Below, piece by piece: positions 7,377 through 51,564 of a DNA stretch of 64,000 nt (position 1 is the stretch's first letter; the number at the start of each line of letters is the position of its first letter). The stretch is taken from contig CALUTU010000005.1 of NCBI GenBank assembly GCA_944323785.1, positions 39,319 to 103,318 on the forward strand, read 5' to 3'. A program made the translations under genes and the position numbers. The notes beneath the pieces were generated by a model. That model had not been told where the DNA came from. It ran no database searches and was given only the letters and a program-made list of their open reading frames with translations. Source of the stretch: an uncultured Bacteroidales bacterium (GTDB lineage Bacteria; Bacteroidota; Bacteroidia; Bacteroidales; UBA932).

Positions 7377-7404
7377 CTAACTGTATTACAAACATATCAA
7401 CATC

Positions 7405-7974: not shown

Positions 7975-7980
7975 CCATCC

Positions 7981-34564: not shown

Positions 34565-36256
34565 ATGGACAACACACATCAGCGGTCACTTCGGGCACTG
34601 CTCGAGTTCGCCTTTACACGATATGCCGACAAGCCGTTCCTGCATTTCATCGACGGGCCCGGCTACAGCTACGGAGAGTTCCACGCCAAGGTCTATGAGA
34701 CCGCCGGACTGCTGGCCCGCTACGGTATGGGCAGAGGCGACCTCGTGGGGCTGCTCTCGCAGAATATGCCCAACTGGGGCGTAGCGTATTTCGCCACAGC
34801 CGCCTTCGGCATGATTACAGTGCCGATGCTTCCGGATTTTTCCGAGAGCGAGATCAAGCACATACTCAAGCACTCGGAGGCCAGAGCCCTGTTCGTATCC
34901 AGGAAACTGCTGCCGAAAGTCCTGCCGAAAGCCATTGACCGACTGGAGCTGATTATCTGCCTCGACGATTTTTCCATCATCAAGGGAGCTCCGTGCAGTG
35001 AGCCGGCAGAGCTGCCCTCCGAAGCGGACATACAGCCGGACGATCTGGCCGCCATCATCTACACATCAGGCACTACCGGCAGTTCCAAGGGCGTGATGCT
35101 CAGCCACCGCAACCTGTGCGCCAACCTCTGGTCCACCGAGGATGTCCGCCCGAGCTTCGACTGGGACGTGTGGCTGTCCCTGCTGCCCCTGTCCCACACC
35201 CTAGAGTGCAGCATGTGTCTCCTCCTTCCGATGCAGGCCGGAGCCAGCGTCAACTACATCGAAAAGGCACCGACACCGACCATTCTTATGAATGCCCTGG
35301 CACGGGTAAGGCCCACGACCATCCTCTCCGTGCCCCTTATTATAGAAAAGGTATACCGCAGCGCGGTGCTGCCGAAACTCACCGCATCACCTCTGCTCCG
35401 GTTCTTGCACCGCATCCCTCCTTTCAGGAAAATGATGCACCGCAAGGCCGGCCGGATGCTGATGGAAAAATTCGGAGGCCGCATCCGTTTCTTCGGCATC
35501 GGCGGGGCAAGGCTTGACCCCGAGGTGGAACGTTTCCTGCTTGAGGCCCGTTTCCCCTACGCCATAGGCTACGGACTCACCGAGACCTCGCCGCTCATCG
35601 CAGCAGCCACCCCGGACATGGTCCGGCTCGGATCCACCGGCCCGGTAGTCAAAGGCGTGGAGCTGCGTCTGCTCAACAAAGACCCCAGGACAGGCGTAGG
35701 CGAGATAGCCGTCAAGGGAGACAACGTCACACGTGGCTATTTCAAGAACCCCGAGGCCACTTCCGCAGCCTTCACCGAGGACGGCTGGTTCCTGACAAAG
35801 GATCTCGGCAAGCTGGACAAGGACGGCTGGCTCTACATCAAAGGCCGCTCCTCGACTACCATTATCGGCCCGAGCGGAGAGAACATCTATCCCGAAGAAG
35901 TGGAGAGCGTCATCAACAGCCACGATATGGTGTCCGAGTCCCTGGTCACCAACCGCAAGGGCAGGCTTACAGCCTTGGTTCATTTCGATTCCGATAAGCT
36001 CAAGGCCTTTCTCGAGTCCACTGACGAGCTGAAACGCACTGCTCAGGAGAAGCTGGAGAACCTCAAGAAAGAGATTCTGGACTACGTCAACCAGAAAGTC
36101 AGCAAATTCTCCCGCATCAGCGAGATAGACCCTCAGGAGGAGGAGTTCGAGAAGACTGCCACCCACAAGATCAAGCGCTACCTCTACGACGGCTCCAAAT
36201 CCAAAGACTCCAAATCCAAAGACCCCAAATCCAGCAAGCCCTCACACAGCAGGTGA
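34565..36256 (+). CDS. AMP-dependent long-chain acyl-CoA synthetase/ligase
   Basis: 563-aa ORF with the AMP-binding signature IIYTSGTTGSSKGV and GYGLTET. The K/S-rich C-terminal tail and stop codon lie inside the repeat-element tail. Confidence 0.9.
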   Translation: MDNTHQRSLRALLEFAFTRYADKPFLHFIDGPGYSYGEFHAKVYETAGLLARYGMGRGDLVGLLSQNMPNWGVAYFATAAFGMITVPMLPDFSESEIKHILKHSEARALFVSRKLLPKVLPKAIDRLELIICLDDFSIIKGAPCSEPAELPSEADIQPDDLAAIIYTSGTTGSSKGVMLSHRNLCANLWSTEDVRPSFDWDVWLSLLPLSHTLECSMCLLLPMQAGASVNYIEKAPTPTILMNALARVRPTTILSVPLIIEKVYRSAVLPKLTASPLLRFLHRIPPFRKMMHRKAGRMLMEKFGGRIRFFGIGGARLDPEVERFLLEARFPYAIGYGLTETSPLIAAATPDMVRLGSTGPVVKGVELRLLNKDPRTGVGEIAVKGDNVTRGYFKNPEATSAAFTEDGWFLTKDLGKLDKDGWLYIKGRSSTTIIGPSGENIYPEEVESVINSHDMVSESLVTNRKGRLTALVHFDSDKLKAFLESTDELKRTAQEKLENLKKEILDYVNQKVSKFSRISEIDPQEEEFEKTATHKIKRYLYDGSKSKDSKSKDPKSSKPSHSR

Positions 36257-36296
36257 ACCGAAACTCCGCCCAACCGGTATACCAGCACTCACTTTT

Positions 36297-36404
36297 ATGA
36301 AAATTCCAGCAGTCGAAAAGACCAGGCCCTCCCACCGCTTCGCGGCGGGCCCCTCCCTCTAGAGCCGAGGGCGGCTAGTCTTTTCTCGTTGCTGGAATTT
36401 CATA
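36297..36404. repeat. R2 long imperfect palindrome (~108 nt), copy 1
   Basis: ATGAAAATTCCAGCAG...GAAAAGACCAGGCCCTC...GAGGGCGGCTAGTCTTTTC...TGCTGGAATTTCAT. The arms pair over about 35 bp with small bulges. Confidence 0.9.
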
Positions 36405-36457
36405 AGAACACCATACGGAGGAAAGTGTAGTTTCCCCAAAGGCTGGCTTAATAAGAA

Positions 36458-36645
36458 CTTTTACAATGTCCAACACACCGCTCAAATGTATTGTGCTGAT
36501 TATTAAACGCATACATTTTGGCGATTTGCTGGACTGCCCGCTTTTTGCCATAAAACAACCATTTCACCCCAGGTCCAGCAGATGCTCTTTTTCAGAGTGC
36601 CTGTATACTAGGCACTTTCCCAAGCAGGCCCTGCTGGACCTCCCC
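36458..36645. repeat. R3 double-hairpin module, copy 1
   Basis: GTCCAACA...TGCTGGAC and AGGTCCAGCAG...CTGCTGGACCT stems. Nested perfect hairpin AGTGCCT-N7-AGGCACT at 36596-36616. Confidence 0.9.
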
Positions 36646-36661
36646 TGAAGTCTCATGCCAT

Positions 36662-36706
36662 GGGGGAAAGTGAACCGTTTTCGCGGAAAAACCCGGCACT
36701 TTCCCC
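36662..36706. repeat. R1 45-nt hairpin, solitary copy
   Basis: GGGGGAAAGTG-AACCGTTTTCGCGGAAAAACCCGG-CACTTTCCCC. Confidence 0.9.
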
Positions 36707-36749
36707 GCACTCCATTCACCCCCTTTAAGAACCTGACAGCATAGACTCT

Positions 36750-36857
36750 ATGAAAATTCCAGCAGTCGAAAAGACCAGGCCCTCCCACCGCTTCGCGGCG
36801 GGCCCCTCCCTCTAGAGCCGAGGGCGGCTAGTCTTTTCTCGTTGCCGGAATTTCATA
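36750..36857. repeat. R2 long imperfect palindrome, copy 2
   Basis: Same as copy 1 with one arm substitution (TGCCGGAATTTCAT). Confidence 0.9.
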
Positions 36858-36910
36858 AGAACACCATACGGAGGAAAGTGTAGTTTCCCCAAAGGCTGGC
36901 TTAATAAGAA

Positions 36911-37098
36911 CTTTTACAATGTCCAACACACCGCTCAAATGTATTGTGCTGATTATTAAACGCATACATTTTGGCGATTTGCTGGACTGCCCGCTTTTTG
37001 CCATAAAACCGCCATTTCACCCCATGTCCAGCAGATGCTCTTTTTCAGAGTGCCTGTATACTAGGCACTTTCCCAAGTAGGCCCTGCTGGACCTCCCC
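36911..37098. repeat. R3 double-hairpin module, copy 2
   Basis: About 98 percent identical to copy 1 by eye. Confidence 0.9.
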
Positions 37099-37114
37099 TG
37101 AAGTCTCATGCCGC

Positions 37115-37477
37115 GGGGGAAAGTGAACCGTTTTCGCCGAAAAACCCGGCACTTTCCCTGGAGGTGGAAATGCCAAGTGCGGCGAGAGAGGCCTGTGGAG
37201 CCAGTGCCCCGGCCGGCCACGGGGGAAAGTGAACCGTTTTCGCCGAAAAACCCGGCACTTTCCCCGGAGGTGGAAATGCCAAGTGCGGCCAGAGAGGCCT
37301 GTAGAGCCGGTACCCCGGCCGGCCATGGGGGAAAGTGAACCGTTTTCGCCGAAAAACCCGGCACTTTCCCCGGGGGTGGAAATGGCAGGTGCCGCCAGAG
37401 AGGCATGTGGAGCCGGTACCCCTGCGAGCCACGGGGGAAAGTGAACCGTTTTCGCGGAAATTCCCGGCACTTTCCCC
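37115..37477 (+). repeat. 106-bp tandem repeat array (3 full periods, 4 R1 hairpins)
   Basis: R1 hairpins start at 37115, 37221, 37327 and 37433, an exact 106-bp period. The ~61-nt inter-hairpin segments are also about 85-90 percent identical to each other. Confidence 0.95.
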
Positions 37478-37537
37478 GAGGGTCTAGGACAAGGGGAGAA
37501 AAAACGCAAAGGTGGGACGAAATGTTGAATGAAATGA

Positions 37538-37833
37538 AAAGGTAAAAGGGCATGTGACTGGAGGGCTGACGAGGATGATGTGGGACGGAAAGGTAAAAGG
37601 GTATGTGACTGGGGGCTGACGAGGATGATGTGGGACGGAATGGCACAAGGGCGTGTGACTGGAGGGGCTGACGAGGATGATGTGGGACGGAAAGGTAAAA
37701 GGGTATGTGACTGGGGGGCTGACGAGGATGATGTGGGACGGAAAGGTAAAAGGGCGTGTGACTGGAGGGGTTGACGAGGATGATGTGGGACGGAAAGGCA
37801 CAAGGGCGTGTGACTGGAGGGGCTGACGGGACA
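37538..37833 (+). repeat. ~52-bp G-rich, C-poor tandem repeat array (~5.7 units)
   Basis: Unit is AAAGGTAAAAGGGYRTGTGACTGGRGGGCTGACGAGGATGATGTGGGACGG. Units start near 37538, 37589, 37640, 37692, 37744 and 37796. Confidence 0.9.
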
Positions 37834-37849
37834 AGAATGAGACGGGATG

Positions 37850-37899
37850 GGAGGAAAGAGAAGGAGCGCATTCGCCGTCTGTCCGGTCGAATGCGCTCC
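37850..37899 (-). terminator. Rho-independent terminator (end of lipoprotein operon 2)
   Basis: Perfect 12-bp stem GGAGCGCATTCG-N13-CGAATGCGCTCC. On the minus strand it is followed by TTCTCTTTCC. Lies 33 nt after the stop at 37932. Confidence 0.75.
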
Positions 37900-37931
37900 C
37901 TATCAGATTAAACTGGTACTACCCTTATGCT

Positions 37932-39227
37932 CTACTTGGTAACAGTTGACGACATGCTTGTCGGAGCCGCCTTTACCACAGTCATTACTTTACTGTCCTG
38001 CGCAGCGTAACTTGTAGAGGTCTTAGTGAACGTTAAAGTTCCGGCAGGAATATAAGTAGGGTAATCACCGTAATATACACCCACACCGTTATCAAATGAG
38101 AAAATATCTGCAGCCACAACGGTATACTGTACATTGGAACTGCTCATGAGCTCGCGAGAAATGCTCGTCTTGGTATCAGGGTCTATGAGAAATGCGTACT
38201 CAGTACCGCTAAAGATAGTGACAACATCATCTTCCTCATTCCAGCATATAGGTGCACATAGCATATCATTGCCATTTAGGTCCTGAGCTACGGCCATATC
38301 ACCGGTCACGATGCCAAGACACGGCTTTCCATCCTCGCTCTCGATTATGGTAGCCCAAAGAGAATACTCTGACAGAGGAGACAATCCGCTTATCCACACA
38401 TAGTTCTCGTTGGTGGACGGCTGTATGGTAACTGGAATTTCGTCGGCATAGCCAGTTTTGTCAAATTCGAACACTATCTGATCGTTCGAATTGTAGTCAA
38501 CGACAACCCTCGCCGTACATCCTACAGTGTAGGTTCCCAACCACGATCTGAGTTCCTCTACCGGCTCCACGACTTCGTGCTGAACAGTGAACGAGCACTC
38601 TCCAGGAAGTGATTCGCGATATTCGGCTGAGCCTTCTTCAGGCTGGGCGATTACACTCACAGTATGAGTGGTGGCAGTAAGGTCGGAAGTCTGGTATGTG
38701 ACAGACGTCTCCGTGGTAGTCTCCCATTCGCCTGAATCGAGGGAGTAAATGTAAGATGCGGCATGCTCAATGCTGGACCAGCTGACAACAACCCCTCCTT
38801 TACCGTCAGGATTAGCGGTCACTTCCGGAGTCTCCAGTCTTTGAGGCTCTACCTGAGCGGTCACTGTGAAAGTGTATGAGCCGGGTTGCGAGGCAGTGTA
38901 CTGATCAGCGGCATCCAGGGCCGGATTGGCAATGACATAGACCGTATGCTCGCCTTCAGCCAGATCAGAGGTGCTGACGGTTACCGATGTCTGGTCTGTG
39001 GTTCTCGCAGCGTTGCTGTCAATGTTCCAGCTGTAAGTCGCCGCATTGGGGATTTCTGTCCAAGATACCGTAACATTGTCTCCATTGACGGTGGCCGACA
39101 CCTCCGGAGTAGCAAGAGCCACTGCCTCGGCAGGGCCATTCTGTTCCTGGCATGAGAGCGCTACGGCAGCAGCCGCTGACACAGCAAAGAGACGCAGATA
39201 AAAATAGTTCATTTTAAAATATTGCAA
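37932..39227 (-). CDS. Surface lipoprotein with two FN3-like domains + C-terminal domain (operon 2, gene 4)
   Basis: 431-aa ORF with lipobox VALSC followed by QEQ. Two internal repeats are present (TPEVSATVNGDNVTVSWTEIPNAATYSW... and TPEVTANPDGKGGVVVSWSSIEHAASYIY...). Confidence 0.75.
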   Translation of the reverse strand: MQYFKMNYFYLRLFAVSAAAAVALSCQEQNGPAEAVALATPEVSATVNGDNVTVSWTEIPNAATYSWNIDSNAARTTDQTSVTVSTSDLAEGEHTVYVIANPALDAADQYTASQPGSYTFTVTAQVEPQRLETPEVTANPDGKGGVVVSWSSIEHAASYIYSLDSGEWETTTETSVTYQTSDLTATTHTVSVIAQPEEGSAEYRESLPGECSFTVQHEVVEPVEELRSWLGTYTVGCTARVVVDYNSNDQIVFEFDKTGYADEIPVTIQPSTNENYVWISGLSPLSEYSLWATIIESEDGKPCLGIVTGDMAVAQDLNGNDMLCAPICWNEEDDVVTIFSGTEYAFLIDPDTKTSISRELMSSSNVQYTVVAADIFSFDNGVGVYYGDYPTYIPAGTLTFTKTSTSYAAQDSKVMTVVKAAPTSMSSTVTK

Positions 39228-39252
39228 TGTAAATTCTTAAATTAAATTATAC

Positions 39253-40659
39253 TTAGTCCTCGTATGCGTAATTGACAAGGGTGTTGATCGGAATGTTGAC
39301 AGCATTGTCCACAACCGCACCGAAATCCCCGTAGAGGACATTCGCAACGCTACCGGTGTAAGTTCCATTGTAGGTTGTGTAGACTACTACGTGCAGATTG
39401 TCGGTATTCTCAACTGAAGACGGAACGCGTACTTTCAGCTGGGTCACGTAAGTGCCGTTGGCCTCCAGCGAGACATTGTCTCCCATAAGGTTGTCGGTCA
39501 TCTCTATACGAATCACGTTATTGTGGACATAATCCTCGCTGCCTCCCAGCTGGTAGTACACCAGGCCGTCCTCAAGCAGGAAGGCGTGCAGCGCATACAG
39601 ACCCGCCTCCTTCGAGGCTATGCTGATGTCCGCATAGACAGTGTCATTCTCCAATCTGGTCACTCCGCCTATAACGGTATTGGAAGGCAACTCACGGACA
39701 GCCTCCTCGGCCAATCCGCTAAACTCATCAGTCATAATGGTCGGATTGGTGTTGTTGGCTATTTCTCCGTAATAGTTGACAAATCCCCTCGGATAGCTGG
39801 CTACTCCAAACATGGCAATGAAGGCATTGCAGTTAGAGTACGCGAGGCTTGTATTCCCGTTGAGGGCGAAAGTGTGCATATTCATGGGAATGATATGATC
39901 GGCCACATTTCTCTCAGCTTCCTCAAGAGCCTGGTTCATAGTAGGACAGTTCACACACCCCGTACTTGTGAAACGGATAGCAAGGGAGCGTCTCACGAAA
40001 GTGCGGCTGTAGTCAGCGACAAGCGAGCCTATCTGCTCCACGGTAATGGTCGCGGTAGTCACGCCGTCCTCGCCCGTAAGGGTGATGTGGCCTTCTCTGA
40101 TCTCGCCGTCATTGCCCTGTATGGACAGATTGACTACGGATGTCATGTACTTGGAGTAAGTATGGTTGTCCTCCAGAAGCGTGGAGTCATACTGGATACC
40201 GGTAACCGTCAGCCAGTCCACGTCCGGTACGGCCTCGTACTTCACATTTCCCTCCACGGGGAAGGCAAAAGTCTGCTCCGTAGATGTTACGGTATAGCTG
40301 TCAGGGGATATGCTAAAGCCGGGGGTACCGTCCTGGAACACGTAGTACAGGGTCTCGGTGCCGTTGACTGTCACGGCGAAATTTCCGGCTCTTTCCTTTA
40401 GTCCGGAATTTGTTTCCAGAATGGAGATAGTCAGATTGGCCGTCCCCGCGCTGCCTCTCATCGGTGTCACTACAAACCATGACGCCCGGTTCTCCAGAGT
40501 CCAGTCGGAGTCAAACTCGAGCGAGGTCTGGACTGTTGTCACCTCGTTCGGAACTGAAATGGAATTGCCTATGATGGCATCAGGCCCGTCCTCTCCCGGT
40601 TTGCAGGAGAGGATGAAAGCCATACCAAGAACTATAAATAATATTTTTGAGAATTTCAT
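39253..40659 (-). CDS. Lipoprotein: BACON-like domains + Omp28-related thioredoxin-fold domain with CxxC (operon 2, gene 3)
   Basis: 468-aa ORF with lipobox FILSC. BACON-like segment ASWFVVTPMRGSAGTANLTISI. RFTSTGCVNCP resembles the FTxxxCxxCP motif of Omp28-related proteins, from memory. Confidence 0.7.
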   Translation of the reverse strand: MKFSKILFIVLGMAFILSCKPGEDGPDAIIGNSISVPNEVTTVQTSLEFDSDWTLENRASWFVVTPMRGSAGTANLTISILETNSGLKERAGNFAVTVNGTETLYYVFQDGTPGFSISPDSYTVTSTEQTFAFPVEGNVKYEAVPDVDWLTVTGIQYDSTLLEDNHTYSKYMTSVVNLSIQGNDGEIREGHITLTGEDGVTTATITVEQIGSLVADYSRTFVRRSLAIRFTSTGCVNCPTMNQALEEAERNVADHIIPMNMHTFALNGNTSLAYSNCNAFIAMFGVASYPRGFVNYYGEIANNTNPTIMTDEFSGLAEEAVRELPSNTVIGGVTRLENDTVYADISIASKEAGLYALHAFLLEDGLVYYQLGGSEDYVHNNVIRIEMTDNLMGDNVSLEANGTYVTQLKVRVPSSVENTDNLHVVVYTTYNGTYTGSVANVLYGDFGAVVDNAVNIPINTLVNYAYED

Positions 40660-40677
40660 ACTACAATATATGATTGA

Positions 40678-42210
40678 TTATTGCAACTGACCAGTATATG
40701 ATCCAGTAAATCTATGTCCCATATCGTCATACAATTCGAAGGAGACAGTACGGTCTCCGTTCTCCTCAGTGGAAACCGTTACTTTACCGCTCGCGGCCGG
40801 AGCATTGATATGTTCTGAACTCGAAGCACCGGGTTCCTTTATTATAAGATACGTTCCTTGTGCGTAGTCAATAAAAGTGCCAGACGCTAATTTATCACCT
40901 ACGGTATAGGTTCCGTCAGGGAGCACTCCGTTATTGTTATCAATGAAGAACGTAGCACGGAACTCATTACCTTTTTTGAAACCAGCATTATCTCCCTTTT
41001 CTGCTATGTTTATTCTCATCTCCGGATCGTTAGCCCAGGTTGAAAGCGTGAAAGTCGTCCCGAATTCAGTAGTATTGAATGCGACATCGAGGATATCTTC
41101 GGTCATGTTAGAGCCAATGGTGGAAGAAGGCACAGTGATATTTCCCGCATATGAGCCGGAGAGAGTGTAGTACTGGTTGATGACGAAGTCGAAAGAGATG
41201 TTGTCTGCGGCTATCTCCATGGAACCGCCTACCACGGCACCCAGATTGGAGTCATCAACTTTCACAAAGGTGTTATAGCCACTGCCCCCGGAAAGCTCAC
41301 CTTCTATAATGCTGAAAGCATCGGTGATGCCGGTAGACACTACGTTGTAAGTTCCTGCCTCCGGACTTCCGTCTACAACGTTGGCGTAGAATAAGACAGT
41401 CAACTCGGCTCCCTCATTGGTTGTGAAAGTTGTAACGAACCTGTTCACACCATTGTCACTCTCCGAGACGCCATCTATACTGACAGAGGTAAATGTGAGC
41501 TCGATATCCTCGTCTATCTGATACTCGAACAGCGTAGTGGGGAATTCGGACTGTACCTCGCTGTATGCCGTCCCGTTCTGGGCGGCCACGGCGAGAGTAT
41601 AAGAGGTATTGGAAGCCAGGCCTTCCACTGTCACTTCGCTCTGGCTCAGGTCAACCTGAGTTCCGGTCTGCAGTATCTCATCGGCATGAGGTATGGCCTC
41701 GCTTCTGCCGACTACCACGTAGGCGATAGCCTCAGCATCCCCCTGGGTATATGTGAAAGTGAGACCGTCTCTCTTGGGCCTTACACTTTCGATGGCTACC
41801 GTGGGGATAATCACCTCGTCACCGCCCTCTGCCAGAGTTGTGACCTCAAGCGTAGCCACGCTGCTGTAGAGGTCGCCATTGGCGGCTGCAGCAGCCAGAA
41901 CATACGATGTCTCAGGCGTGAGACCGTCAGCGGTATAGGTTGCAGACTCCGTTCCGGCCGAATGTCCGGAAGCCAGTATCTCCTCAGCTGTGGGAACTGT
42001 CTCTCCGGTCTCCACGATCTGCCATGCCACGCTCTCGGCATTGGCAGGAGTCAGAGTGAAGTCGACGGAGGTTGTCTTTGCCTCGCCGAGGGATATCGAG
42101 ACAGTGGGCTCTACCGGTGTGTCGGGAGTTTCCGGCTCCTTATCCTCGCAGGAGAACAGCGACAGGCATGCAAGACCTGCCATAATCGCTGGTATATAAT
42201 AAGTCTTCAT
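40678..42210 (-). CDS. Surface lipoprotein with two FN3-like domains + C-terminal domain (operon 2, gene 2)
   Basis: 510-aa ORF with lipobox SLFSC followed by EDKEPE. Repeats end in DGLTPETSYVLAAAAANGDLYS and EGLASNTSYTLAVAAQNGTAYS. Paralogous to the N-terminus of 21678-23615. Confidence 0.78.
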   Translation of the reverse strand: MKTYYIPAIMAGLACLSLFSCEDKEPETPDTPVEPTVSISLGEAKTTSVDFTLTPANAESVAWQIVETGETVPTAEEILASGHSAGTESATYTADGLTPETSYVLAAAAANGDLYSSVATLEVTTLAEGGDEVIIPTVAIESVRPKRDGLTFTYTQGDAEAIAYVVVGRSEAIPHADEILQTGTQVDLSQSEVTVEGLASNTSYTLAVAAQNGTAYSEVQSEFPTTLFEYQIDEDIELTFTSVSIDGVSESDNGVNRFVTTFTTNEGAELTVLFYANVVDGSPEAGTYNVVSTGITDAFSIIEGELSGGSGYNTFVKVDDSNLGAVVGGSMEIAADNISFDFVINQYYTLSGSYAGNITVPSSTIGSNMTEDILDVAFNTTEFGTTFTLSTWANDPEMRINIAEKGDNAGFKKGNEFRATFFIDNNNGVLPDGTYTVGDKLASGTFIDYAQGTYLIIKEPGASSSEHINAPAASGKVTVSTEENGDRTVSFELYDDMGHRFTGSYTGQLQ

Positions 42211-42237
42211 GTTTGAATATTCTAAGTATTAAATTGT

Positions 42238-43074
42238 TTATCCATTTATGTACATATAGTTCTCAATGCTGCCGGAGAAGAACAGTCCATAGCTCCGACC
42301 GTCCGAGCATGTCACCTCGGCTTCCAACTGTATCTCGTTGTTGCCGAGATCGGTGATGATGACAGTACCGTCAGTGATAGCATAGCGGGGATTGTAACCG
42401 TAATTCTCCGCAGCGATACCGTAGAAAGAGGTCTGGCAGAATGTACCCGGCTCCATAGTGGCCTGAGGATCGTAGGTGTAAGTACCCGCAGGCAGGGTGA
42501 CAAGTCTCCTGTAAGTGTTGCCGTTCTGCTGGAACTCCTCTGTAACAGGCTCCTCGCTTGAGTAGAAGTTGATATTGAGACCTTCGGAGCCTACCACCCA
42601 AAGTCCATTCGTGGATACCCATGTATAATAGGACTTATCGGATGTATAGTACTCGCCAGTGCAGGACTTGGCATCGATGAACACATCTGTGTTCTGGCCG
42701 TCCTGATGCACGAAGGCTGTGTCGAGCAGGAATCCGGTACTGTAGTCATATCTGATGACGACAGTATCCGTGCGTTCATGCGACGGGTTGGCCTCTATGT
42801 CGAACGACAGGGTGTTGGTGGCAATGTCATCACCAGTGAAAGTAATCCAGTCCGAAGAAGTTATAAAGAAGTCTCCGTCGTTTTCGGGGCGGTTAACGAA
42901 CTGGTAGGTCATGGAAATAGTACCACCGTCCTGAGGGACGTCGAAGTAATCGGTGTTCAGCTGGAATGCGGAGTCTCCGTTGCCATTGCCGTTGCCTCCG
43001 CCTGTCTGCTGTTCACAAGCAGCCGCCAGTATCATGACTACAGCTGCTGAAAATAGAATAAACTTGCTCTTCAT
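42238..43074 (-). CDS. Lipoprotein with BACON-like N-terminal domain (operon 2, gene 1)
   Basis: Start set at MKSKFILF (43074), downstream of the -7 box. Lipobox ILAAC followed by EQQTGGGNGNGNG. BACON-like segment reads VPQDGGTISMTYQF...DTVVIRYD. Confidence 0.72.
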   Translation of the reverse strand: MKSKFILFSAAVVMILAAACEQQTGGGNGNGNGDSAFQLNTDYFDVPQDGGTISMTYQFVNRPENDGDFFITSSDWITFTGDDIATNTLSFDIEANPSHERTDTVVIRYDYSTGFLLDTAFVHQDGQNTDVFIDAKSCTGEYYTSDKSYYTWVSTNGLWVVGSEGLNINFYSSEEPVTEEFQQNGNTYRRLVTLPAGTYTYDPQATMEPGTFCQTSFYGIAAENYGYNPRYAITDGTVIITDLGNNEIQLEAEVTCSDGRSYGLFFSGSIENYMYING

Positions 43075-43097
43075 CTTGATTGATTTAATAGTACGTT

Positions 43098-43105
43098 TAA
43101 AACGG
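43098..43105 (-). promoter_or_regulatory. -7 box TAAATTTG (lipoprotein operon 2)
   Basis: TAnnTTTG on the minus strand, 24 nt upstream of the ATG at 43074. Confidence 0.55.
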
Positions 43106-43266
43106 TGCAAATTTAATGCAAAAAAATCAGATTGTGACAAGTGTGTGACAAAAAAACGTATGGCAAAATAAACGTAGGTTTAAATTGCTGTTCCATCCAG
43201 AGATACACAGCAACTGGGTAATTGCATGACCTGCATGTAGGTAACTGCGCTGTCAGTGACTGAATG

Positions 43267-44103
43267 TCAGTCCCGGCGCATGTACAGAGACAGTCTTCTG
43301 GCCTGCATTCCGGACAGTATGCCGTTCTCGACTATGGCCTGCAATGAGAAAACGCTGTCAGGGACAGTGCGGCGGAAGCGGTCTATGCCTTTTGCGGCAT
43401 ACGGGCCTATATAAGGGTGTGACGCCATGGAGTCAACGGACATGGTGCGCAGGTCCAGTCTCCGGACGGATGCCGGCTCTATAAACACATAGTCGTAAAG
43501 ACGATTGAGACGTGCAGTGTCGAATCCGCGGATATCCAGCAGCTGACTGACGTCCGCGTAACTCCCGAGGCGCTCGCGGTAACTCAATATCTGCTTTGCG
43601 TACCACGGTCCTATTCCAGGCAGCGCATCCAGAGCCGCGCTGTCGGCGGAGTTAAGTTCCACCATATCCCATTTCCATCCGTCGTAATCGTATTCATACC
43701 GCCGGCTCTCTGTCCCAGTTGCGGACACATCTCCGACAGATGCCGCGGCTCCGGTTCCAGCAGCATCCGCAGGTCCGTCTTGCGGCACTTTGTTCTTATC
43801 CACGGAGCCTGTGCTTCCGTACTGTCCCGTAGCTGCCACTGCATTCCGGCCGCCTGGCTCAGCACCTTGCCGCTCATTAACAGACGGATAACGGACGATG
43901 CCGGCAGTGTCGGATGAAGGCGGCCTGCCCTGGGTGGAAACTGTCCCTGATGCTGTGCCTGTCTCGGCACGCCTGCTATTAATAATAAGGTGTCTGGTGA
44001 AAAATACAGCCTGGGCCGTCAGAATCAGGAACACCAGGATGATGACTCCGTTGGAGAAAAGACGCTCAGTCCTCCCTTTCCTCTTTTTCTCTTCTTCCCA
44101 CAT
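43267..44103 (-). CDS. ComEA-like helix-hairpin-helix DNA-binding membrane protein
   Basis: 278-aa ORF with an N-terminal TM helix. HhH region reads ELNSADSAALDALPGIGPWYAKQILSYRERLG, with a second HhH-like repeat. Low-complexity G/A/T-rich linker. Overlaps the rsmI 3' end by 38 nt. Confidence 0.8.
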   Translation of the reverse strand: MWEEEKKRKGRTERLFSNGVIILVFLILTAQAVFFTRHLIINSRRAETGTASGTVSTQGRPPSSDTAGIVRYPSVNERQGAEPGGRNAVAATGQYGSTGSVDKNKVPQDGPADAAGTGAAASVGDVSATGTESRRYEYDYDGWKWDMVELNSADSAALDALPGIGPWYAKQILSYRERLGSYADVSQLLDIRGFDTARLNRLYDYVFIEPASVRRLDLRTMSVDSMASHPYIGPYAAKGIDRFRRTVPDSVFSLQAIVENGILSGMQARRLSLYMRRD

Positions 44104-44776
44104 ATGCTTTCCCTTCTACTGTTAGTACTATCTCCCCTTTGGGCGGGTTGTCCGTGAACCACGAGGCCAGCTCTGAGAGCGTCCCCCTGCGGGTCTCCTC
44201 GTGGACCTTGCTGATCTCGCGGGAGACCGACGCCCTGCGCTCCGGCCCGAAATACCCGCACATCTGCGACAGGGTCCTGGCCAGCCGGTAGGGCGACTCG
44301 TAGAATATCATGGTGCGGCCTTCGGAGGCGAGCTCTGTCAGGCGGGTCTGACGGCCCTTCTTTACCGGCAGGAAACCCTCGAACGAGAACCTGTCGGCCG
44401 GTAGTCCCGAGTCTATAAGAGCCGGTACGAAGGCCGTGGCTCCGGGCAGAGTAATGACATCTATACCTTCTTCAGCGCATGCACGGGCCAGCATGAATCC
44501 AGGATCGGAAATGCCCGGGGTACCGGCGTCCGACACCAATGCTATGTCCATACCTGAGAGGAGCTTTTCGCAGACTGGGCGGACACGGGCGTGCTCGTTG
44601 AACTTGTGGTGCGCCTCCGTAGGCTTTGATATCCCGTAGTGCTTCAGAAGTACGGATGTGGTCCTGGTGTCCTCGGCCAGGATGAGGTCCACCTGTTTCA
44701 GAACCGCGATGGCTCTGAAAGTCATGTCTTCCAGATTGCCCACAGGAGTGGGTACGATATAAAGCTTGCCGGCCAT
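44066..44776 (-). CDS. rsmI: 16S rRNA (cytidine1402-2'-O)-methyltransferase
   Basis: Start set at MAGKLYIVPTPVGNLEDMTFRA, the typical RsmI N-terminus. Tetrapyrrole-methylase fold. Confidence 0.9.
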   Translation of the reverse strand: MAGKLYIVPTPVGNLEDMTFRAIAVLKQVDLILAEDTRTTSVLLKHYGISKPTEAHHKFNEHARVRPVCEKLLSGMDIALVSDAGTPGISDPGFMLARACAEEGIDVITLPGATAFVPALIDSGLPADRFSFEGFLPVKKGRQTRLTELASEGRTMIFYESPYRLARTLSQMCGYFGPERRASVSREISKVHEETRRGTLSELASWFTDNPPKGEIVLTVEGKAYVGRREKEERED

Positions 44777-44799
44777 GACGGTAAAATGGTATAAAATGT

Positions 44800-44807
44800 T
44801 AATTTTG
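44800..44807 (+). promoter_or_regulatory. -7 box TAATTTTG (tdk)
   Basis: TAnnTTTG 50 nt upstream of the ATG at 44857. Confidence 0.45.
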
Positions 44808-44843
44808 CACTCCGGATGCCGGGACGACTGCATCCGCAAAGAA

Positions 44844-44851
44844 CAAAAGTA
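44844..44851 (-). promoter_or_regulatory. -7 box TACTTTTG (rsmI)
   Basis: TAnnTTTG on the minus strand, 68 nt upstream of the ATG at 44776. Face-to-face with the tdk promoter. Confidence 0.4.
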
Positions 44852-44856
44852 AGAAA

Positions 44857-45429
44857 ATGTTTTCAGAATACGCAAAAAAACCGGGATGGATAGAAGTAAT
44901 CTGCGGCTCGATGTTCTCGGGCAAGACCGAGGAGCTTATACGCCGTCTGAAGCGGGCCAAGTTCGCCAATCAGCGGGTAGAGATATTCAAGCCCGGCATA
45001 GATACCAGATACTCAGTGCAGGAAGTAGTCTCACACGATGCCACTGCCATACTTTCCACACCGGTGGAGTCTTCGGCCAGTATCCTGCTGCTCTCCGGAG
45101 ACGTGGACGTGGTGGGCATAGATGAGGCCCAGTTCTTCGACGACGGCATAGTGGACGTGTGCCGCCAGCTTGCATCCTCGGGCATAAGAGTCATAGCCGC
45201 CGGCCTGGACATGGACTACCAGGGAAAACCGTTCGGCCCCATGCCGGCTCTTATGGCCGTGGCCGAATACGTGGACAAGGTACATGCCATCTGTGTCAGA
45301 TGCGGTGATCCCGCACTGCATTCCCACCGGCTGAGCACAAGCGACCGCCTGGTGGAACTCGGGGAGAAGGATATCTACGAGCCTCTCTGCCGCCATTGCT
45401 TCAATAAATGCATGGAGAATTCTGATTAA
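44857..45429 (+). CDS. tdk: Thymidine kinase
   Basis: 190-aa ORF with the P-loop [12 protein letters not shown] and a C-terminal Zn ribbon (CVRCG...CRHC). Confidence 0.93.
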
Positions 45430-45454
45430 CCCTATGCTAATTCCGAATTTTCAT

Positions 45455-45462
45455 TATTTTTG
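45455..45462 (+). promoter_or_regulatory. -7 box TATTTTTG (CNNM-family gene)
   Basis: TAnnTTTG 26 nt upstream of the ATG at 45488. A second match, TACATTTG at 45479-45486, is too close to the ATG. Confidence 0.45.
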
Positions 45463-45487
45463 CATTCGTGACTATTCTTACATTTGA

Positions 45488-46792
45488 ATGGAAATTTTTA
45501 TAATTCTACTTCTTATTCTACTCAACGGCCTCTTCTCCATGAGTGAGGTTGCTCTGATAAGCGCAAGAAAATCAAGTCTTACAGCCGATGCCAAAAGGGG
45601 CAGCCGCTCCGCCAAAAATGTTCTCAATCTTACTGAAAGACCCAATAAGTTCCTGTCTACAGTGCAGATAGGGATAACTCTCATCGGTATTCTCACCGGT
45701 ATCTATTCGGGAGCTTCGATAGCGGACAAGTTCTCCGACATACTCGAGGGCTGGGGGCTGGCGGAAAGTGTGGCCCAGCCTCTTGCGCAGGTATCCATAG
45801 TTATCATCGTGACATATCTGACCATTGTTCTCGGCGAGCTGGTTCCCAAACGTCTGGGTATGGGCTCTCCGGAGAGTATCGCCAAGGTAATGTCCGGCCC
45901 CATGCTGGTACTCTCGTGGATAGCCACCCCTTTCGTGTGGATACTGGACAAGAGCACATCCCTGTTTGTCAAGGCTTTCCATGTAGAGGAGAAAGAAGCC
46001 AAGGTGACTGAGGAGGAGATCAAGTCGATGGTGGCCGAGGGCAAGGAGGACGGAGAGGTACAGGATGTGGAGCAGGATATCGTAGAAAGAGTATTCTCTT
46101 TAGGCGACAGAAAAATAGAGTCCATCATGACCAGCCGCAACGAGATAGTGTGGATAGACAAGGAGATGACACGGGAGGAAATCAATACTACTGTGCAGGA
46201 GAATCTCTTTGAGGTATATCCCGTGGGCGACGGCAGTCTTGATGAGATAGTCGGGGTTGTCTACCTGAAGGATCTCTTCGGCAAGCTGGACAACGAGAAA
46301 TTCTCTATAGATGACATCATACGCCCCGTGCAGTATTTCCACGAGTATACGGACGTATATAAGGTGCTGGAGCAGATGAAGAAGGCTCACGTGACCTACG
46401 GTCTGGTCTGCGACGAGTTCGGAGTATGCCAGGGTATCGTGACATACAAGGACATACTGGAAGGTCTGGTCGGCTCCATAGATGACGAGGAGGACGAGCC
46501 GGATATCATCGAGCGCCAGAACGGAGGCGGCTGGCTGGTGGACGGTCAGTGCCCTTTCTACGACTTCCTGGCCCATTTTGACATGGAGGAACTGGCATCG
46601 GAAAACGATTACAATACGGTCGGTGGCCTGATTCTTGAATTACTTGAGCACATACCCAAGTCCGGGGAGTATGTGGAGTGGAACGGCTTCCGCCTTGAGG
46701 TTGTGGACATGGACGGAGCGAGAATAGACAAAGTGCTTGTCAACAGAACGGTCTCTGAGCCCGAAGATGTTAAGGACGATAAAGAAAAATAG
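45488..46792 (+). CDS. CNNM/TlyC-family membrane protein (DUF21 + CBS pair + CorC_HlyC)
   Basis: 434-aa ORF with N-terminal TM helices. Has the CBS pair region and C-terminal transporter-associated domain typical of 'hemolysin family protein'. Confidence 0.85.
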   Translation: MEIFIILLLILLNGLFSMSEVALISARKSSLTADAKRGSRSAKNVLNLTERPNKFLSTVQIGITLIGILTGIYSGASIADKFSDILEGWGLAESVAQPLAQVSIVIIVTYLTIVLGELVPKRLGMGSPESIAKVMSGPMLVLSWIATPFVWILDKSTSLFVKAFHVEEKEAKVTEEEIKSMVAEGKEDGEVQDVEQDIVERVFSLGDRKIESIMTSRNEIVWIDKEMTREEINTTVQENLFEVYPVGDGSLDEIVGVVYLKDLFGKLDNEKFSIDDIIRPVQYFHEYTDVYKVLEQMKKAHVTYGLVCDEFGVCQGIVTYKDILEGLVGSIDDEEDEPDIIERQNGGGWLVDGQCPFYDFLAHFDMEELASENDYNTVGGLILELLEHIPKSGEYVEWNGFRLEVVDMDGARIDKVLVNRTVSEPEDVKDDKEK

Positions 46793-46799
46793 AACAAGT

Positions 46800-47507
46800 A
46801 TGGGAAATACAGCATTTTTACTTTCCATGATGTCCGCCGCTGTCATGATAACAGCCGGCGGATATTCTGTATCAGCACAGGATTATGACAAATCGGGATT
46901 CTGTCCCATAACCAAGGGTATGACTCTGGAGTATGCCAATTATGACGCGGACGGACATAAGACCGGGTCTTATGTAATGACTGTCAAGGCCGTATCGGGC
47001 ACTTTGGAGAAGGGGACCGTGACTTTTGACCAGTATTTTTACGATGAGGACGGCCGACCGCTTTTCGATGACAACGGCGGCAATCTTCCGATGGAGGTCA
47101 CGGTCGGAGGCCCCGACGGCACTGTCTCGCGCATGAGCGACGTGGGGAAAGTAATGAAGGTGCAGGACATCATGTCCAAAGGAGATGCCAGCAGTGTGCC
47201 CTCGGGCCTGAAGGCCGGAATGACTATCCCTGATGGAAAGATAAAGGTCCAGATAGGCATGGTCTCCGCCAACATCCTTACTCAGAGCCGTCAGGTGGTG
47301 GAGCAGAAGAGCATCACCGTGCCGGCAGGAACATTCGACTGCTTCCTGCTCAAGGAGAATCAGGTGACAAAACAGCCCATAGGCTCCAGAACAGAGCGGA
47401 TAGAGACATGGTATGCTCCTGGCATCGGCTGTGTCAAGCAGGCAGTCTACGACAAGAAAGGACGTCTGGACCATACCCAGGAGCTGGTATCCCTCCAATT
47501 TGAATAA
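46800..47507 (+). CDS. Secreted hypothetical protein
   Basis: Start set at MGNTAFLLSMMSAAVMITAG (signal peptide). No recognised motif. Confidence 0.6.
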   Translation: MGNTAFLLSMMSAAVMITAGGYSVSAQDYDKSGFCPITKGMTLEYANYDADGHKTGSYVMTVKAVSGTLEKGTVTFDQYFYDEDGRPLFDDNGGNLPMEVTVGGPDGTVSRMSDVGKVMKVQDIMSKGDASSVPSGLKAGMTIPDGKIKVQIGMVSANILTQSRQVVEQKSITVPAGTFDCFLLKENQVTKQPIGSRTERIETWYAPGIGCVKQAVYDKKGRLDHTQELVSLQFE

Positions 47508-47521
47508 TTTTCCTGAAAAAT

Positions 47522-48445
47522 ATGAATACTATTGCCTGTAGGGACATCGTGAAAGTGTTCGGGACTTATACGGCCCTGAACCATGTCTCCATAGAAGTTC
47601 CGAAAGGAACTATCTTCGGTCTGCTCGGGCCCAACGGGGCAGGCAAGACCACTCTAATCAGAATCATCAACCAGATTACAGTGCCTAATTCCGGCATTGT
47701 GCTTTTCAATGACAATCCGGTAGTCCCCGATGATGTCTACCGCATCGGCTATCTTCCCGAGGAGCGCGGTCTCTATAAGAAGATGAAAGTCGGGGAGCAG
47801 GCCATGTATCTGGCCCGTCTAAAGGGACTTAGCCGTCAGCAGGCCATGACAGAACTGAAGAAGTGGTTCGTGAAGTTCGGCATCGAGAGCTGGTGGAACA
47901 AGAAAGTGGAGGAGCTGTCCAAGGGAATGGCCCAGAAAGTGCAGTTCATCACCACTGTTCTACACAGGCCGGAGCTGCTGATCCTGGACGAGCCGTTCTC
48001 AGGATTCGACCCGGTGAACGTGCAGCTTATCCGCAATGAGATCCTGCGTATGAAAGACGAGGGCACGACCATTATCCTCTCCACTCACAATATGGCGTCC
48101 GTAGAGGAGCTTTGCGACAATATCGCCCTCATCAACAAGTCCAATCTCGTGGTCACCGGAGGTGTGGAGCAGATCCGCCGCGACCACGGCAAGAGCCAGG
48201 TGGAAGTGCTTTACCGACCCTCCGGCGCATCAGTGGAGATGTCTGACCGGCAGGTTCTCAAGCTCGTCTCGGACGGAGCGCACAAGGATATCCGCAGGGC
48301 CGTATACGACGTGCCCAAAGGAACGCCTTCGGCTCAGATACTCTCGGAACTGGCCGGCAGCGGCATTGACGTGGTGTCCTACCGCGAGCTGATACCGAGC
48401 ATGAACGATATATTCATCCAATTAGTAAAAGGGGAGGGCAAGTAA
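47522..48445 (+). CDS. ABC transporter ATP-binding protein
   Basis: 307-aa ORF with Walker A GPNGAGKTT, signature LSKGMAQKV and Walker B LILDEP. Confidence 0.92.
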   Translation: MNTIACRDIVKVFGTYTALNHVSIEVPKGTIFGLLGPNGAGKTTLIRIINQITVPNSGIVLFNDNPVVPDDVYRIGYLPEERGLYKKMKVGEQAMYLARLKGLSRQQAMTELKKWFVKFGIESWWNKKVEELSKGMAQKVQFITTVLHRPELLILDEPFSGFDPVNVQLIRNEILRMKDEGTTIILSTHNMASVEELCDNIALINKSNLVVTGGVEQIRRDHGKSQVEVLYRPSGASVEMSDRQVLKLVSDGAHKDIRRAVYDVPKGTPSAQILSELAGSGIDVVSYRELIPSMNDIFIQLVKGEGK

Positions 48446-48446
48446 T

Positions 48447-49799
48447 ATGGACTTCAAGAAGATAAAACTCGTACTCGGACGTGAATTCTCCATCCGCGTC
48501 AAGAAGAAATCATTTATAATCACGACCATCGTCACCCCCATACTTTTCGCGGCCCTGATGATAGTGCCATCGCTCATAATGATGGCCGACCTGGACAAGG
48601 ATGTCAACAGGGTGATGGTGCTGGACGACTCAGGTGTTGTGGCCCAGGCACTGGAAAGCGGCGCGGAGATAGAGTATGTCATACCCGAGAACATAGACCT
48701 GGAGTTCGCCAAGAATCATCTGGACAGCCTGGGTGTATATGCCGTGATGTATGTCTCGCCTCTGGACACCGCCAACAACGTGACTGTGGATGCATACGCG
48801 GTCAAGCAGATCAACGCGAAAGTGAGCGACGCTATAAAGGCCGATGTCAACGATGTCATAGAGCGCTACAAGCTCCAGCAGTACAATATCGAGAATTACG
48901 ACCGGATACAGGCGGATCTCAATCACGAGGTGGACCTGAACACCTACATAGTCGGTGAGGACGGTCAGGAGCGGGAGTCCATACTCGGAATCAGCATGGC
49001 CATCTCCTTCATCATGGGCTTTATCATCTACATGTTCGTGACCATGTTCGGCAACATGGTCATGACCAGCGTCATCAACGAGAAGTCCAACAAGATAGTG
49101 GAGGTCATCGTCTCCTCCGTCAAGCCTTTCGACCTGATGATAGGCAAGATTCTCGGCGTGGCCAGCGTGGCCCTTACCCAGTTCTTCATCTGGGTGGTCC
49201 TGACCCTGGCCATCGTATTCGGCTTCCAGCTTGCCATGGGACCGGAACTGATGAGCGATCCCGAGGCCATGGAGCAGATGACCCAGATGGCCGGCATGGA
49301 CTCTGAGCAGATGGCACAGATAGCCTCCGCTTCCGACAGCGAGACCGCACAGGTGTTCACGGCACTCAAGGAGGTCAACTTCGGTCTCATCATCGGCTGC
49401 TTCCTGATATATTTCGTCCTCGGCTATCTTTTGTATGCCTCCCTTTTCGCCGCCATCGGCTCAGCCGTGGACAACGAGGCCGACACCCAGCAGCTGGTAC
49501 TGCCCGTGACCATTCCTCTTATTATCGGACTGCTGCTTATGCTTCAGACATTCCAGAATCCAGACGGTCAGCTGGCCTTCTGGGGCTCTATTATTCCATT
49601 CACCTCTCCGATGGTGATGCTGGCACGTGTGCCCTTCGAGGGCTGCGTGCAGACATGGGAGCTGCTGCTGTCCATCGGCCTGCTGCTGGTGACTTTCCTG
49701 ATTGCCGTGTATTTTTCCGGCAAGATATACCGTATCGGCATCCTGATGCACGGTACAAAGTACTCCTGGAAGGACATCTGGAAATGGCTTAAATATTAG
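48447..49799 (+). CDS. ABC-2 type transporter permease (NatB-like)
   Basis: 450-aa ORF with an N-terminal TM helix, a large extracytoplasmic loop and 5 C-terminal TM helices. Starts 2 nt after the ATPase gene. Confidence 0.85.
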   Translation: MDFKKIKLVLGREFSIRVKKKSFIITTIVTPILFAALMIVPSLIMMADLDKDVNRVMVLDDSGVVAQALESGAEIEYVIPENIDLEFAKNHLDSLGVYAVMYVSPLDTANNVTVDAYAVKQINAKVSDAIKADVNDVIERYKLQQYNIENYDRIQADLNHEVDLNTYIVGEDGQERESILGISMAISFIMGFIIYMFVTMFGNMVMTSVINEKSNKIVEVIVSSVKPFDLMIGKILGVASVALTQFFIWVVLTLAIVFGFQLAMGPELMSDPEAMEQMTQMAGMDSEQMAQIASASDSETAQVFTALKEVNFGLIIGCFLIYFVLGYLLYASLFAAIGSAVDNEADTQQLVLPVTIPLIIGLLLMLQTFQNPDGQLAFWGSIIPFTSPMVMLARVPFEGCVQTWELLLSIGLLLVTFLIAVYFSGKIYRIGILMHGTKYSWKDIWKWLKY

Positions 49800-49848
49800 T
49801 CTTGGTGTATTTTACCCACTCTGACGCAATTCTGAAATAGGTTTTGAT

Positions 49849-50592: not shown

Positions 50593-50596
50593 CATT

Positions 50597-51442: not shown

Positions 51443-51508
51443 CCCCCTCCACCCTCCTCACATCCCCTACCTCCCCCCACAGAAAGACTCACAGTCTCCA
51501 CCCCCGGT

Positions 51509-51553: not shown

Positions 51554-51564
51554 GTGTGGTGAAA

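Follow-up and report, generated by a model that had tools for sequence, protein, structure and literature searches.

R2, a dispersed palindromic repeat of Bacteroidales with a structured apex apparently related to the BoxC/PIT/TM_ECO DNA repeats

Introduction

BoxC/PIT repeats were reportedly studied by Bachellier et al. in the 1990s and by Hoyne and Maher in 2000, and although this class of repeat, TM elements included, has been known for about 30 years, we know of no accepted function or means of spread for it. Here we describe R2, a palindromic element of about 108 nt with three copies in a 64,000-nucleotide stretch of the genome of an uncultured Bacteroidales bacterium (assembly GCA_944323785.1, contig CALUTU010000005.1, positions 39,319 to 103,318; hereafter the window). 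We hold, with a probability of roughly 0.6, that R2 is a Bacteroidales variant of the BoxC/PIT/TM structured DNA repeats, carried on a long palindrome that maintains itself, and that it acts as a hotspot at which DNA is inverted and exchanged.

The TM_ECO repeats of this class follow the pattern CCCTCNCCC-N3-6-GGGNGAGGG-N3-GGGNGAGGG with stems of 9 nt, and correspond to a class II purine-motif intrastrand triplex that forms as DNA in vitro, purine-motif triplexes being stated to be unable to form in RNA (PMC4666352). They are always intergenic, have no strand bias, are not tied to transposases and lie at loci that are more rearranged; the search that defined them limited loops to 1-6 nt (PMC4666352). 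A further point of comparison is the d(GCGNAGC) mini-hairpin, which is extraordinarily stable as DNA and much weaker in its RNA counterpart (PMC13037366, PMC3201870). Hairpins of this c-GNA-g kind act in single-stranded DNA, as single-strand initiation signals and as the hairpin promoters of phage N4 (PMC13037366).

Results and Discussion

Distribution of R2 and conservation of its apex

R2 is a dispersed palindromic repeat, intergenic and non-coding. The three copies that a sequence-only reading of the window had reported, the third of them inverted, were recovered by sequence comparison as well as by a covariance model, which gives three matches in the window and no other, at E about 1e-19. 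That reading had left room for a mere local duplication; this does not hold, as BLAST and the covariance model agree on ten copies on eight contigs of the 1.97-Mb, 36-contig metagenome-assembled genome (MAG) to which the window belongs. In what follows this genome is G000, other G numbers denote genomes of relatives and L numbers individual loci. Six of the ten G000 copies have arms of the type ATGAAAATCCAGC..., and four have wholly different yet complementary arms. Within the genus, R2 was found in 20 of 24 genomes with a maximum of 23 copies, and in a family-wide sample of 121 genomes from 37 genera the model has matches in 26 genomes and 8 genera, where the cores are diverged. The hosts found in public records are Candidatus Coprenecus species, which NCBI places in the Rikenellaceae, 'Alistipes sp. 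CAG:831' and, with another arm type, a Ca. Cryptobacteroides MAG; phage records searched with R2 gave no match.

Comparison of the loci shows that the arms fall into many locus-specific types whose similarity grows toward the core, and that the apex, of about 61 nt, is 90-100% identical (81, later 105 distinct copies). At every old locus the arms differ yet remain complementary. The motif conserved in relatives is the apex, which is shared across loci, genera and even phyla. Two bursts of copies with shared stems were also observed, the ATGAAAATCCAGC subfamily being amplified in this genus and the GGAGACAAAAGTTTGCCGG subfamily in the Ca. Cryptobacteroides MAG. Both amplified arm types multiplied as whole units, and shared terminal inverted repeats are a property of these two subfamilies that does not extend across old loci. 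The Ca. Cryptobacteroides element (L319, L328, L346, L353) again lies in a mosaic with tandem arrays: it combines the common core with a hairpin that is short (CCCAC-GAA-GTGGG), forms another amplified unit, and is then followed by tandem copies of a piece of about 38 nt (AAAGCTTTTGCGGAACGG.GAAGCCGGGC).

These results bear directly on the proposal, made from the window alone, that CCAGCAG is a recognition sequence re-used between R2 and a further module of the window, R3. The word belongs to the locus-specific part of the arm, is kept in one recently amplified subfamily only and occurs 853 times in the genome, because of which the link to R3 drawn from it carries no weight. The R3-like arm strings TTCCAGCAG and GTCCAGCAG are indeed present, but are unremarkable, with 64 and 116 genomic occurrences respectively.

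Fold of the element

Each R2 element is a near-perfect palindrome of 21-31 bp per arm, the arm sequence being particular to the locus, and bears on one strand the conserved apex, which consists of a 4-bp helix (xGCC/GGCx'), a pseudoknot, A-GGGG, a CCC...GGG hairpin and A-GGG. In the window copies the paired arms total about 22-27 bp, made up of 14 bp of outer stem and 8 bp of GAAAAGAC/GTCTTTTC with an internal loop between them, and about 55-61 nt make up the structured apex. The long bulged hairpin proposed earlier is borne out in kind, since the sequence folds far better than its shuffles (z of -4.7 on the plus and -6.1 on the minus strand with RNA parameters, -4.2 and -5.8 with DNA parameters), but its dimensions had been given as about 35 bp for the arms and about 35 nt for the apex and had to be revised. 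Read along the G-rich strand, which carries the conserved fold and is the minus strand in copies 1 and 2, the element runs arm, GAAAAGAC, U, AGCC, G, CCCUC, GGCU, CUA, GAGGG, A, GGGG, and then CCCGCCGC-GAA-GCGGUGGG, A, GGG, CC, UG, GUCUUUUC and arm (coordinates in Table 1).

The helices are documented by covariation. In the inner closing helix 98% of the cells are paired and four of the eight pairs show compensatory changes. In helix PKa the 40 sequences of the genus have A-U in 27 cases and U-A in 12, i.e. AGCC/GGCU changes to UGCC/GGCA, and other genera have GCC/GGC, AGC/GCT, GGC/GCC or GCTA/TGGC. The PKa loop pairs with the proximal GAGGG, which results in an H-type pseudoknot; this second helix, PKb, covaries as well, other genera included (CCCTC/GAGGG, CCCGT/ACGGG, CCCAC/GTGGG, CCCGC/GCGGG). 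The A-GGGG and A-GGG runs are invariant and unpaired. Hairpin H2 varies in stem and loop and, from locus to locus, in length, being 19 nt long or replaced by a long hairpin of about 54 nt or an insert of about 70 nt; its loop is c-GNA-g (GAA, GTA, GCA, GGA) in 29 of 48 distinct variants, a preference that we take as a DNA-type signature. The replacement of about 54 nt is also tipped by c-GAA-g and that of about 70 nt is unrelated (AAGTCCTCCCTAAGGGAGGATTTAGG...) (loci L060, L066, L067, L069; L018, L061, L062, L068), and the same arms carry different H2 versions across species.

Other folds were considered for the apex and rejected. In the three-way junction that corresponds to the minimum-energy structure, pair 32:45 covaries, pairs 32:85 and 45:58 are broken in 13 sequences, and the CCCGT/ACGGG variants have no distal partner. 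A G-quadruplex with a hairpin loop would need four G-runs, two of which are Watson-Crick paired with covariation (CCCGT/ACGGG; CCT.../...AGG in L224). A search of Rfam gave no family match to R2 at E<=1 and noise only at E<=10. Some stems that are otherwise conserved bear a decayed apex or a different one: the core is internally deleted in L084 (G021:C3), and at G000:C16:16196-16245 a 12-nt loop, CAGGCAATTCCT, stands where five other species carry R2.

Sequence link to the BoxC/PIT/TM_ECO repeats

A search of plasmid records revealed that nt 31-64 of R2 (CCCTCCCACCGCTTCGCGGCGGGCCCCTCCCTCT), a stretch of 34 nt within which H2 falls, are 100% identical to repeats on Azospirillum replicons, where they stand in the context CCCCTCTCCCG-CTC-CGGGAGAGGG-AGGGG-CCCGCCGC-GAA-GCGGTGGG-A-GGGTGAGGG. 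The module of G-run, c-GNA-g hairpin and G-run is thus the same, over 34 nt, in gut Bacteroidales and soil Alphaproteobacteria. The alphaproteobacterial form can be written CCCTCTCCC-loop-GGGAGAGGG-AGGGG-CCC[5 bp-GNA-5 bp]GGG-A-GGGTGAGGG, and the pattern GGGAGAGGGAGGGGCCC-N13-GGGAGGG is present at at least 120 loci in Caulobacter, Sphingomonas, Azospirillum, Parvibaculum and many alphaproteobacterial MAGs; among the matches listed, 95 of 123 distinct copies have the GNA loop and 96 of 123 the third strand TGAGGG. This form has the full 9-nt stems (CCCTCTCCC / GGGAGAGGG / GGGTGAGGG) of the TM_ECO repeats and shares the 34 nt with R2. The published search missed the hairpin-bearing form because it allowed loops of 1-6 nt only, and a search of the literature for an alphaproteobacterial BoxC-type repeat with a mini-hairpin in loop 2 found no description. 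The alphaproteobacterial repeat (L384, Azospirillum argentinense plasmid p4, 1400-1560; L385-L503) is often followed by CCCTCACC, which is able to pair with GGTGAGGG.

R2 resembles the BoxC/PIT/TM_ECO repeats in the order of its parts on one strand (C-run CCCTC, loop, G-run GAGGG, loop, further G-run), in its extreme conservation between distant taxa, in being strictly intergenic without strand bias and without a link to transposases, and in its paired inverted arrangements and its presence at rearranged loci. PKb supplies the pyrimidine/purine duplex of a triplex-type motif, and the conserved AGGG that follows H2 would be its third strand, a triplex being predicted for R2 by homology with its relatives. 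Judged from its sequence, the R2 module is a shortened relative of BoxC/PIT/TM_ECO, closest to the alphaproteobacterial form with the mini-hairpin in loop 2. It differs from TM_ECO in that loop 1 pairs back into a pseudoknot, that loop 2, which has 3 nt in TM_ECO, is taken up by a mini-hairpin (19 to about 70 nt), and that the motif tops a locus-specific perfect palindrome of 21-31 bp; its hosts are Bacteroidota, which go unmentioned in PMC4666352. H2 in turn shares the C:G-closed c-GNA-g motif with the DNA mini-hairpins of the phage G4 origin, ssiA and phage N4 (PMC13037366). Those are single functional sites of phages and plasmids, whereas R2 is a multi-copy chromosomal repeat known from sequence.

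A second and simpler type of cap, type B (CTCCC-GAAAA-GGGAG-GGGA-CCC..GGG-GAGG), was noted on 26-bp locus-specific perfect stems at G000:C5:7503-7596 and C2:144846-144940; at the C5:7503 locus G000 has type B, and G017 has an R2 element instead.

Empty sites, apex flips and rearrangements

Orthologous loci show how the copies behave. At the site orthologous to that on C14, the gene ends of G024 and G014 abut with no hairpin between them and represent empty alleles; other species have one of two stem types, and G009 a chimera of both. Two further pairs of filled and empty sites (G009 L015 vs G000 C12:11020-11120, and G016 L047 vs G000 C11:37340-37535) agree in one detail, namely that in the outer 7 bp of the stem one side was already there as flank in the empty allele, whereas the opposite side is a new copy of it in inverted orientation. 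Arms overlap stop codons at some loci, and in G000 stems of at least 25 bp are almost exclusively associated with R2 or type B caps, ordinary terminators having stems of 16-22 bp and small loops. The pattern of the outer 7 bp, the perfect pairing, the graded similarity toward the core and the overlap with stop codons fit a process in which one arm is copied from the other, by which the arms grow and stay perfect.

The apex is inverted within the same stem at orthologous loci, as in L071 vs L085 and C12 vs L049, and such flips between species were seen on C16 (G000 vs G004), C12 (vs G018), C14 (vs G009) and, in the amplified subfamily, at several loci. Core variants can also differ where orthologous loci share their arms (L036 vs L044, L048 vs L069), which suggests that cores are exchanged between copies.

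Rearrangement at R2 was observed as individual cases and not in a controlled comparison. Synteny is split at R2 copies in G008 and G042, and in the window inverted copies bracket a 15-kb segment (Table 1) which is collinear in G008 and inverted in two other species of the genus, G016 and G041, at whose junctions neither R2 nor the R4 repeat was found. The GC skew of the segment is opposite in sign to that of its flanks, and the sign changes within the segment. What is inverted between copies 1-2 and copy 3 includes a flank module (36243-36304 / 51663-51724) and an R4 palindrome. The inversion may have come about either by two insertions followed by recombination between them, or by one replicative event that made the second copy and the inversion together.

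Weighing of rival explanations

The main rival to the DNA repeat is a functional RNA, which we consider unlikely. R2 would then be a structured RNA of 3' regions, whose stem acts as a bidirectional terminator or as an RNase III processing stem that frees a small RNA, the latter binding a protein or ligand through its G-runs. Such a role would agree with the covariation of pseudoknot and hairpin across genera, with conserved G.U pairs confined to one strand, with the position of all seven simple G000 copies between convergent gene ends and with a structured core that is closed by GAC...GUC and then followed by UUUU on both strands. Compensatory changes, however, would be given equally by a fold of single-stranded DNA, and a consistent transcribed strand with wobble pairs was not found. 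The outer stems of 86 elements comprise 1969 Watson-Crick pairs, 12 G.U, 12 A.C and 19 mismatches of other kinds; were a single RNA strand under selection, G.U should have accumulated and A.C been purged, and this lack of wobble tolerance on the core strand points to DNA rather than RNA. A cis-acting RNA should moreover be sense, and against this speak the apex flips together with the mixed orientation in tandem contexts, where the G-rich strand is sense in 16 cases and antisense in 28 (gene contexts being convergent in 46, tandem in 44 and divergent in 6), counts that rest on home-made gene calls from codon-usage-scored open reading frames and in which orthologous loci are included and so are not independent. 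One locus between co-oriented genes even holds both apex orientations across species (L031 vs L062, L075, L076). A conserved promoter is lacking because the arms are too variable, the c-GNA-g choice is that of DNA triloops (PMC13037366), the absence of an Rfam match has been mentioned, and the relatives of R2 are repeats of the purine-motif triplex kind, a structure that RNA does not adopt (PMC4666352). As to termination, a scan for the terminator consensus marks only the sub-hairpin AGCCGAGGGCGGCT + AGTCTTTTCT, about half of the copies lie between convergent genes, and PIT elements had no terminator activity in E. coli according to the work as it is cited in PMC4666352. Orientation relative to replication showed no clear bias in G000 and G042: the G-rich strand is on the strand of positive GC skew in 7 of the 10 G000 copies, and in G042 the strands are mixed around the chromosome.

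The suggestion of a REP-associated transposase, made for the arms by the sequence-only reading, can be carried over to the apex: R2 would be a non-autonomous transposon of the REPIN type or of the type of miniature inverted-repeat transposable elements (MITEs), and the target recognised by a RAYT-like Y1 (HUH) transposase would be the apex, folded as single-stranded DNA. The genome does contain one such gene (G000 C13:1737-2735, with HVH and YxxxNP motifs), which scores at the Pfam cut-off and reaches 34.7 bits with NF047646, under the NCBIfam cut-off of 80. On both sides of it (1580-1710, 2760-3110), however, are inverted GAGAGTGTACC/GGTACACTCTC repeats, six of whose eight genomic copies adjoin the gene in the classic arrangement of a RAYT with its REP sequences, and R2 is 23 kb away. 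Among the 121 genomes 14 have both R2 and a homologue, 12 R2 only, 21 the gene only and 74 neither, an association (odds ratio about 4, uncorrected for phylogeny) that we regard as weak even though every sampled genome with at least seven R2 copies has a homologue; several of the 12 R2-bearing genomes that lack one are 93-99% complete, and Y1-like hits also occur in genomes of the genus without R2. Paralogues do lie close to R2 in G042 (about 0.9 kb) and G008 (about 0.6 kb). The former belongs to a 4-kb insert (L174, G042:C1:2131000-2150900, at 4568-8437) at the junction of this close relative matching the window at 51.5 kb, which has a Y1-like open reading frame of 288 aa and an insertion sequence (IS)-like one of 504 aa, both bracketed by long tandem arrays of the 106-nt R4 unit (GGGGAAAGTG..CACTTTCCCC); R4 may be the repeat of this enzyme, for which it seems a better fit than R2.

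Like the REP, BIME and REPIN sequences (PMC2817692, PMC3116915), R2 is a short palindromic intergenic repeat, often at convergent gene ends, that enters into mosaics with further modules, R3, R4 and tandem arrays in this case, keeps its fold over its sequence and coexists with a RAYT-like gene. REP and REPIN, by contrast, conserve their arms and leave the spacer free to vary, which is the reverse of R2; R2 copies number 1-23 and not hundreds, a GTAG/CGTC tag was not seen at the foot, and the repeat flanking the single RAYT-like gene is GGTACACTCTC and not R2. With MITEs such as Correia/NEMIS, ERIC and RUP, R2 shares hairpin units of about 100 nt, near-identical bursts with identical arms, presence/absence polymorphism and siting near gene ends, but its ends are not conserved in old copies, and a non-systematic search turned up no parent IS that shares its ends. 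BoxC-type repeats, moreover, were never found with transposases (PMC4666352). A cognate protein for R2 is possible, and mobilisation by a RAYT-like enzyme appears to us a distinctly doubtful account of it. Two other systems were considered and set aside. A retron msr/msd, suggested by UAGC after the closing repeat and by a variable long hairpin, would require a reverse transcriptase, and an RVT_1 search of the genome (87% complete) gave no match. An integron attC site has conserved R''/R' boxes at its base and a variable apex; R2 shows the opposite pattern, with the apex conserved and the base variable, and contains no RYYYAAC/GTTRRRY pair.

It is very improbable, finally, that R2 represents ordinary bidirectional terminators into whose loops a mobile apex cassette was repeatedly inserted. 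Ordinary G000 terminators do have A-rich/T-rich stems, and the same stem may carry another apex (C16:16150-16325 vs L042; G010/G017 vs G000 C16:11167; type B or R2 at C5:7503). The empty sites of G024, G014 and G000 C12, however, are without any hairpin, and neither the near restriction of long stems to R2 and type B caps nor the similarity of stems graded toward the core is what insertion into existing loops would give.

Several points weigh against the reading of R2 as a BoxC-type structured DNA repeat. Its stems have 5 nt and not 9, and only GGG is found at the position of the third strand; R2 consequently fails the published TM_ECO pattern (CCCTC / GAGGG / GGG, with a loop 2 of about 25 nt), and a relaxed TM expression run over G000 gave no match. 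Covariation between third strand and purine strand was not found in R2 beyond the GGG. An H-type pseudoknot with compensatory changes and strand-specific G.T(U) pairs in the core would be expected of a functional RNA too, and the basis of the orientation counts given above must also be set on this side. Lastly, no mobilising enzyme was identified for R2, and (GC/CT)ATAAT at L015 vs G000 C12 is a possible target duplication, the sole one seen.

Possible mode of maintenance and spread

If R2 is the structured DNA repeat that we favour, its working form would be folded single-stranded DNA, and neither an RNA gene nor a protein site defined by CCAGCAG. When the region becomes single-stranded in replication or repair, the arms could snap back and the apex fold into a very stable knot. 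The knot would hinder the replisome and thereby promote template switching and recombination between the arms, processes that would keep the arms complementary, extend them into the local flank and flip the apex. Recombination between copies would result in chimeras, swapped cores and the 15-kb inversion of the window. New copies would arise in bursts, stem and apex together, either through a Y1/HUH enzyme or by template switching without a transposase, and between gene ends the hairpin may in addition stop transcription from both sides.

A bolder possibility, for which our confidence is low, concerns the module of G-run, c-GNA-g hairpin and G-run itself. It might serve, in single-stranded DNA, as a signal for recognition or priming that a conserved machine of the cell reads, for instance primase, the restart primosome or an HUH enzyme. 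Or else it might form the core of a minimal selfish element which needs no transposase, multiplies by template switching and builds its palindromic arms from local flank. Either version, if true, would provide a mechanism for the BoxC/PIT repeats, which have long gone unexplained.

With R2 the BoxC/PIT/TM repeats would be extended to Bacteroidota and linked to a widespread and apparently undescribed alphaproteobacterial form. The covarying pseudoknot, the flipping apex, the arms derived in part from an inverted copy of flank, the filled and empty alleles and the bracketed 15-kb inversion are natural experiments that go beyond those offered by the enterobacterial copies. For work on gut MAGs, R2 elements matter as points of contig breakage or misassembly and as likely drivers of strain-level rearrangement.

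The copies in the window

Copies 1 and 2 are in direct orientation and 99% identical, and are parts of a duplicated unit of 453 nt (36296-36748 / 36749-37201); copy 3 is inverted relative to both and has 96-97% identity to them. The first two lie in a mosaic of 1.67 kb without genes (36257-37931), placed between two convergent genes, one for an AMP-binding enzyme and the other, part of a BACON/Omp28 lipoprotein operon, for a protein of 431 aa without annotation. The positions of the copies and of their parts are collected in Table 1.

Table 1. Positions in the window of the R2 copies, of the parts of copy 1 and of associated features
Feature	Position	Strand	Remarks
R2 copy 1, whole hairpin element	36297..36404	-	model match 36311-36389 (-), 101.7 bits, E 1.3e-19
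R2 copy 2, in the second 453-nt unit	36750..36857	-	model match 36764-36842 (-)
R2 copy 3, opposite in orientation to the other two	51565..51670	+	model match 51579-51657 (+)
Outer 5' arm ATGAAATTCCAGCA	36390..36403	-	pairs with 36298-36311; subfamily-specific, contains CCAGCAG
Outer 3' arm TGCTGGAATTTTCA	36298..36311	-	partner of the outer 5' arm in the folds
Inner closing helix, 5' side GAAAAGAC	36378..36385	-	partner 36315-36322 GTCTTTTC
Helix PKa	36363..36376	-	AGCC (36373-36376) with GGCT (36363-36366); CCCTC (36367-36371) in the intervening loop
Helix PKb, GAGGG pairing with CCCTC (36367-36371)	36355..36359	-	covariation
Conserved unpaired GGGG, preceded by A	36350..36353	-	near-invariant in 40 and 57 sequences
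Hairpin H2, CCCGCCGC-GAA-GCGGTGGG, c-GNA-g triloop, conserved G.T pair	36331..36349	-	compensatory changes in 3 of 8 pairs
Conserved AGGG following H2	36327..36330	-	at the third (reverse-Hoogsteen) strand position of alphaproteobacterial BoxC-type relatives; putative third strand
Flank module accompanying R2 in this subfamily	36243..36304		inverted partner 51663-51724 (pair I3, 81%)
15-kb segment bracketed by inverted R2 copies	36405..51564		lipoprotein operon through 5'-nucleotidase genes

An ATG-started frame, MSNTPLKCIVLIIKRIH..., is found in both 453-nt units (36466-36648 and 36919-37080) and a third time at 21372-21509. As a candidate gene (60 aa in the first unit) it was rejected, since copy two has an early stop and a change of frame makes copy three diverge after 17 aa; it is probably not coding. 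Flanks resembling the flank module of Table 1 are present at other R2 loci.

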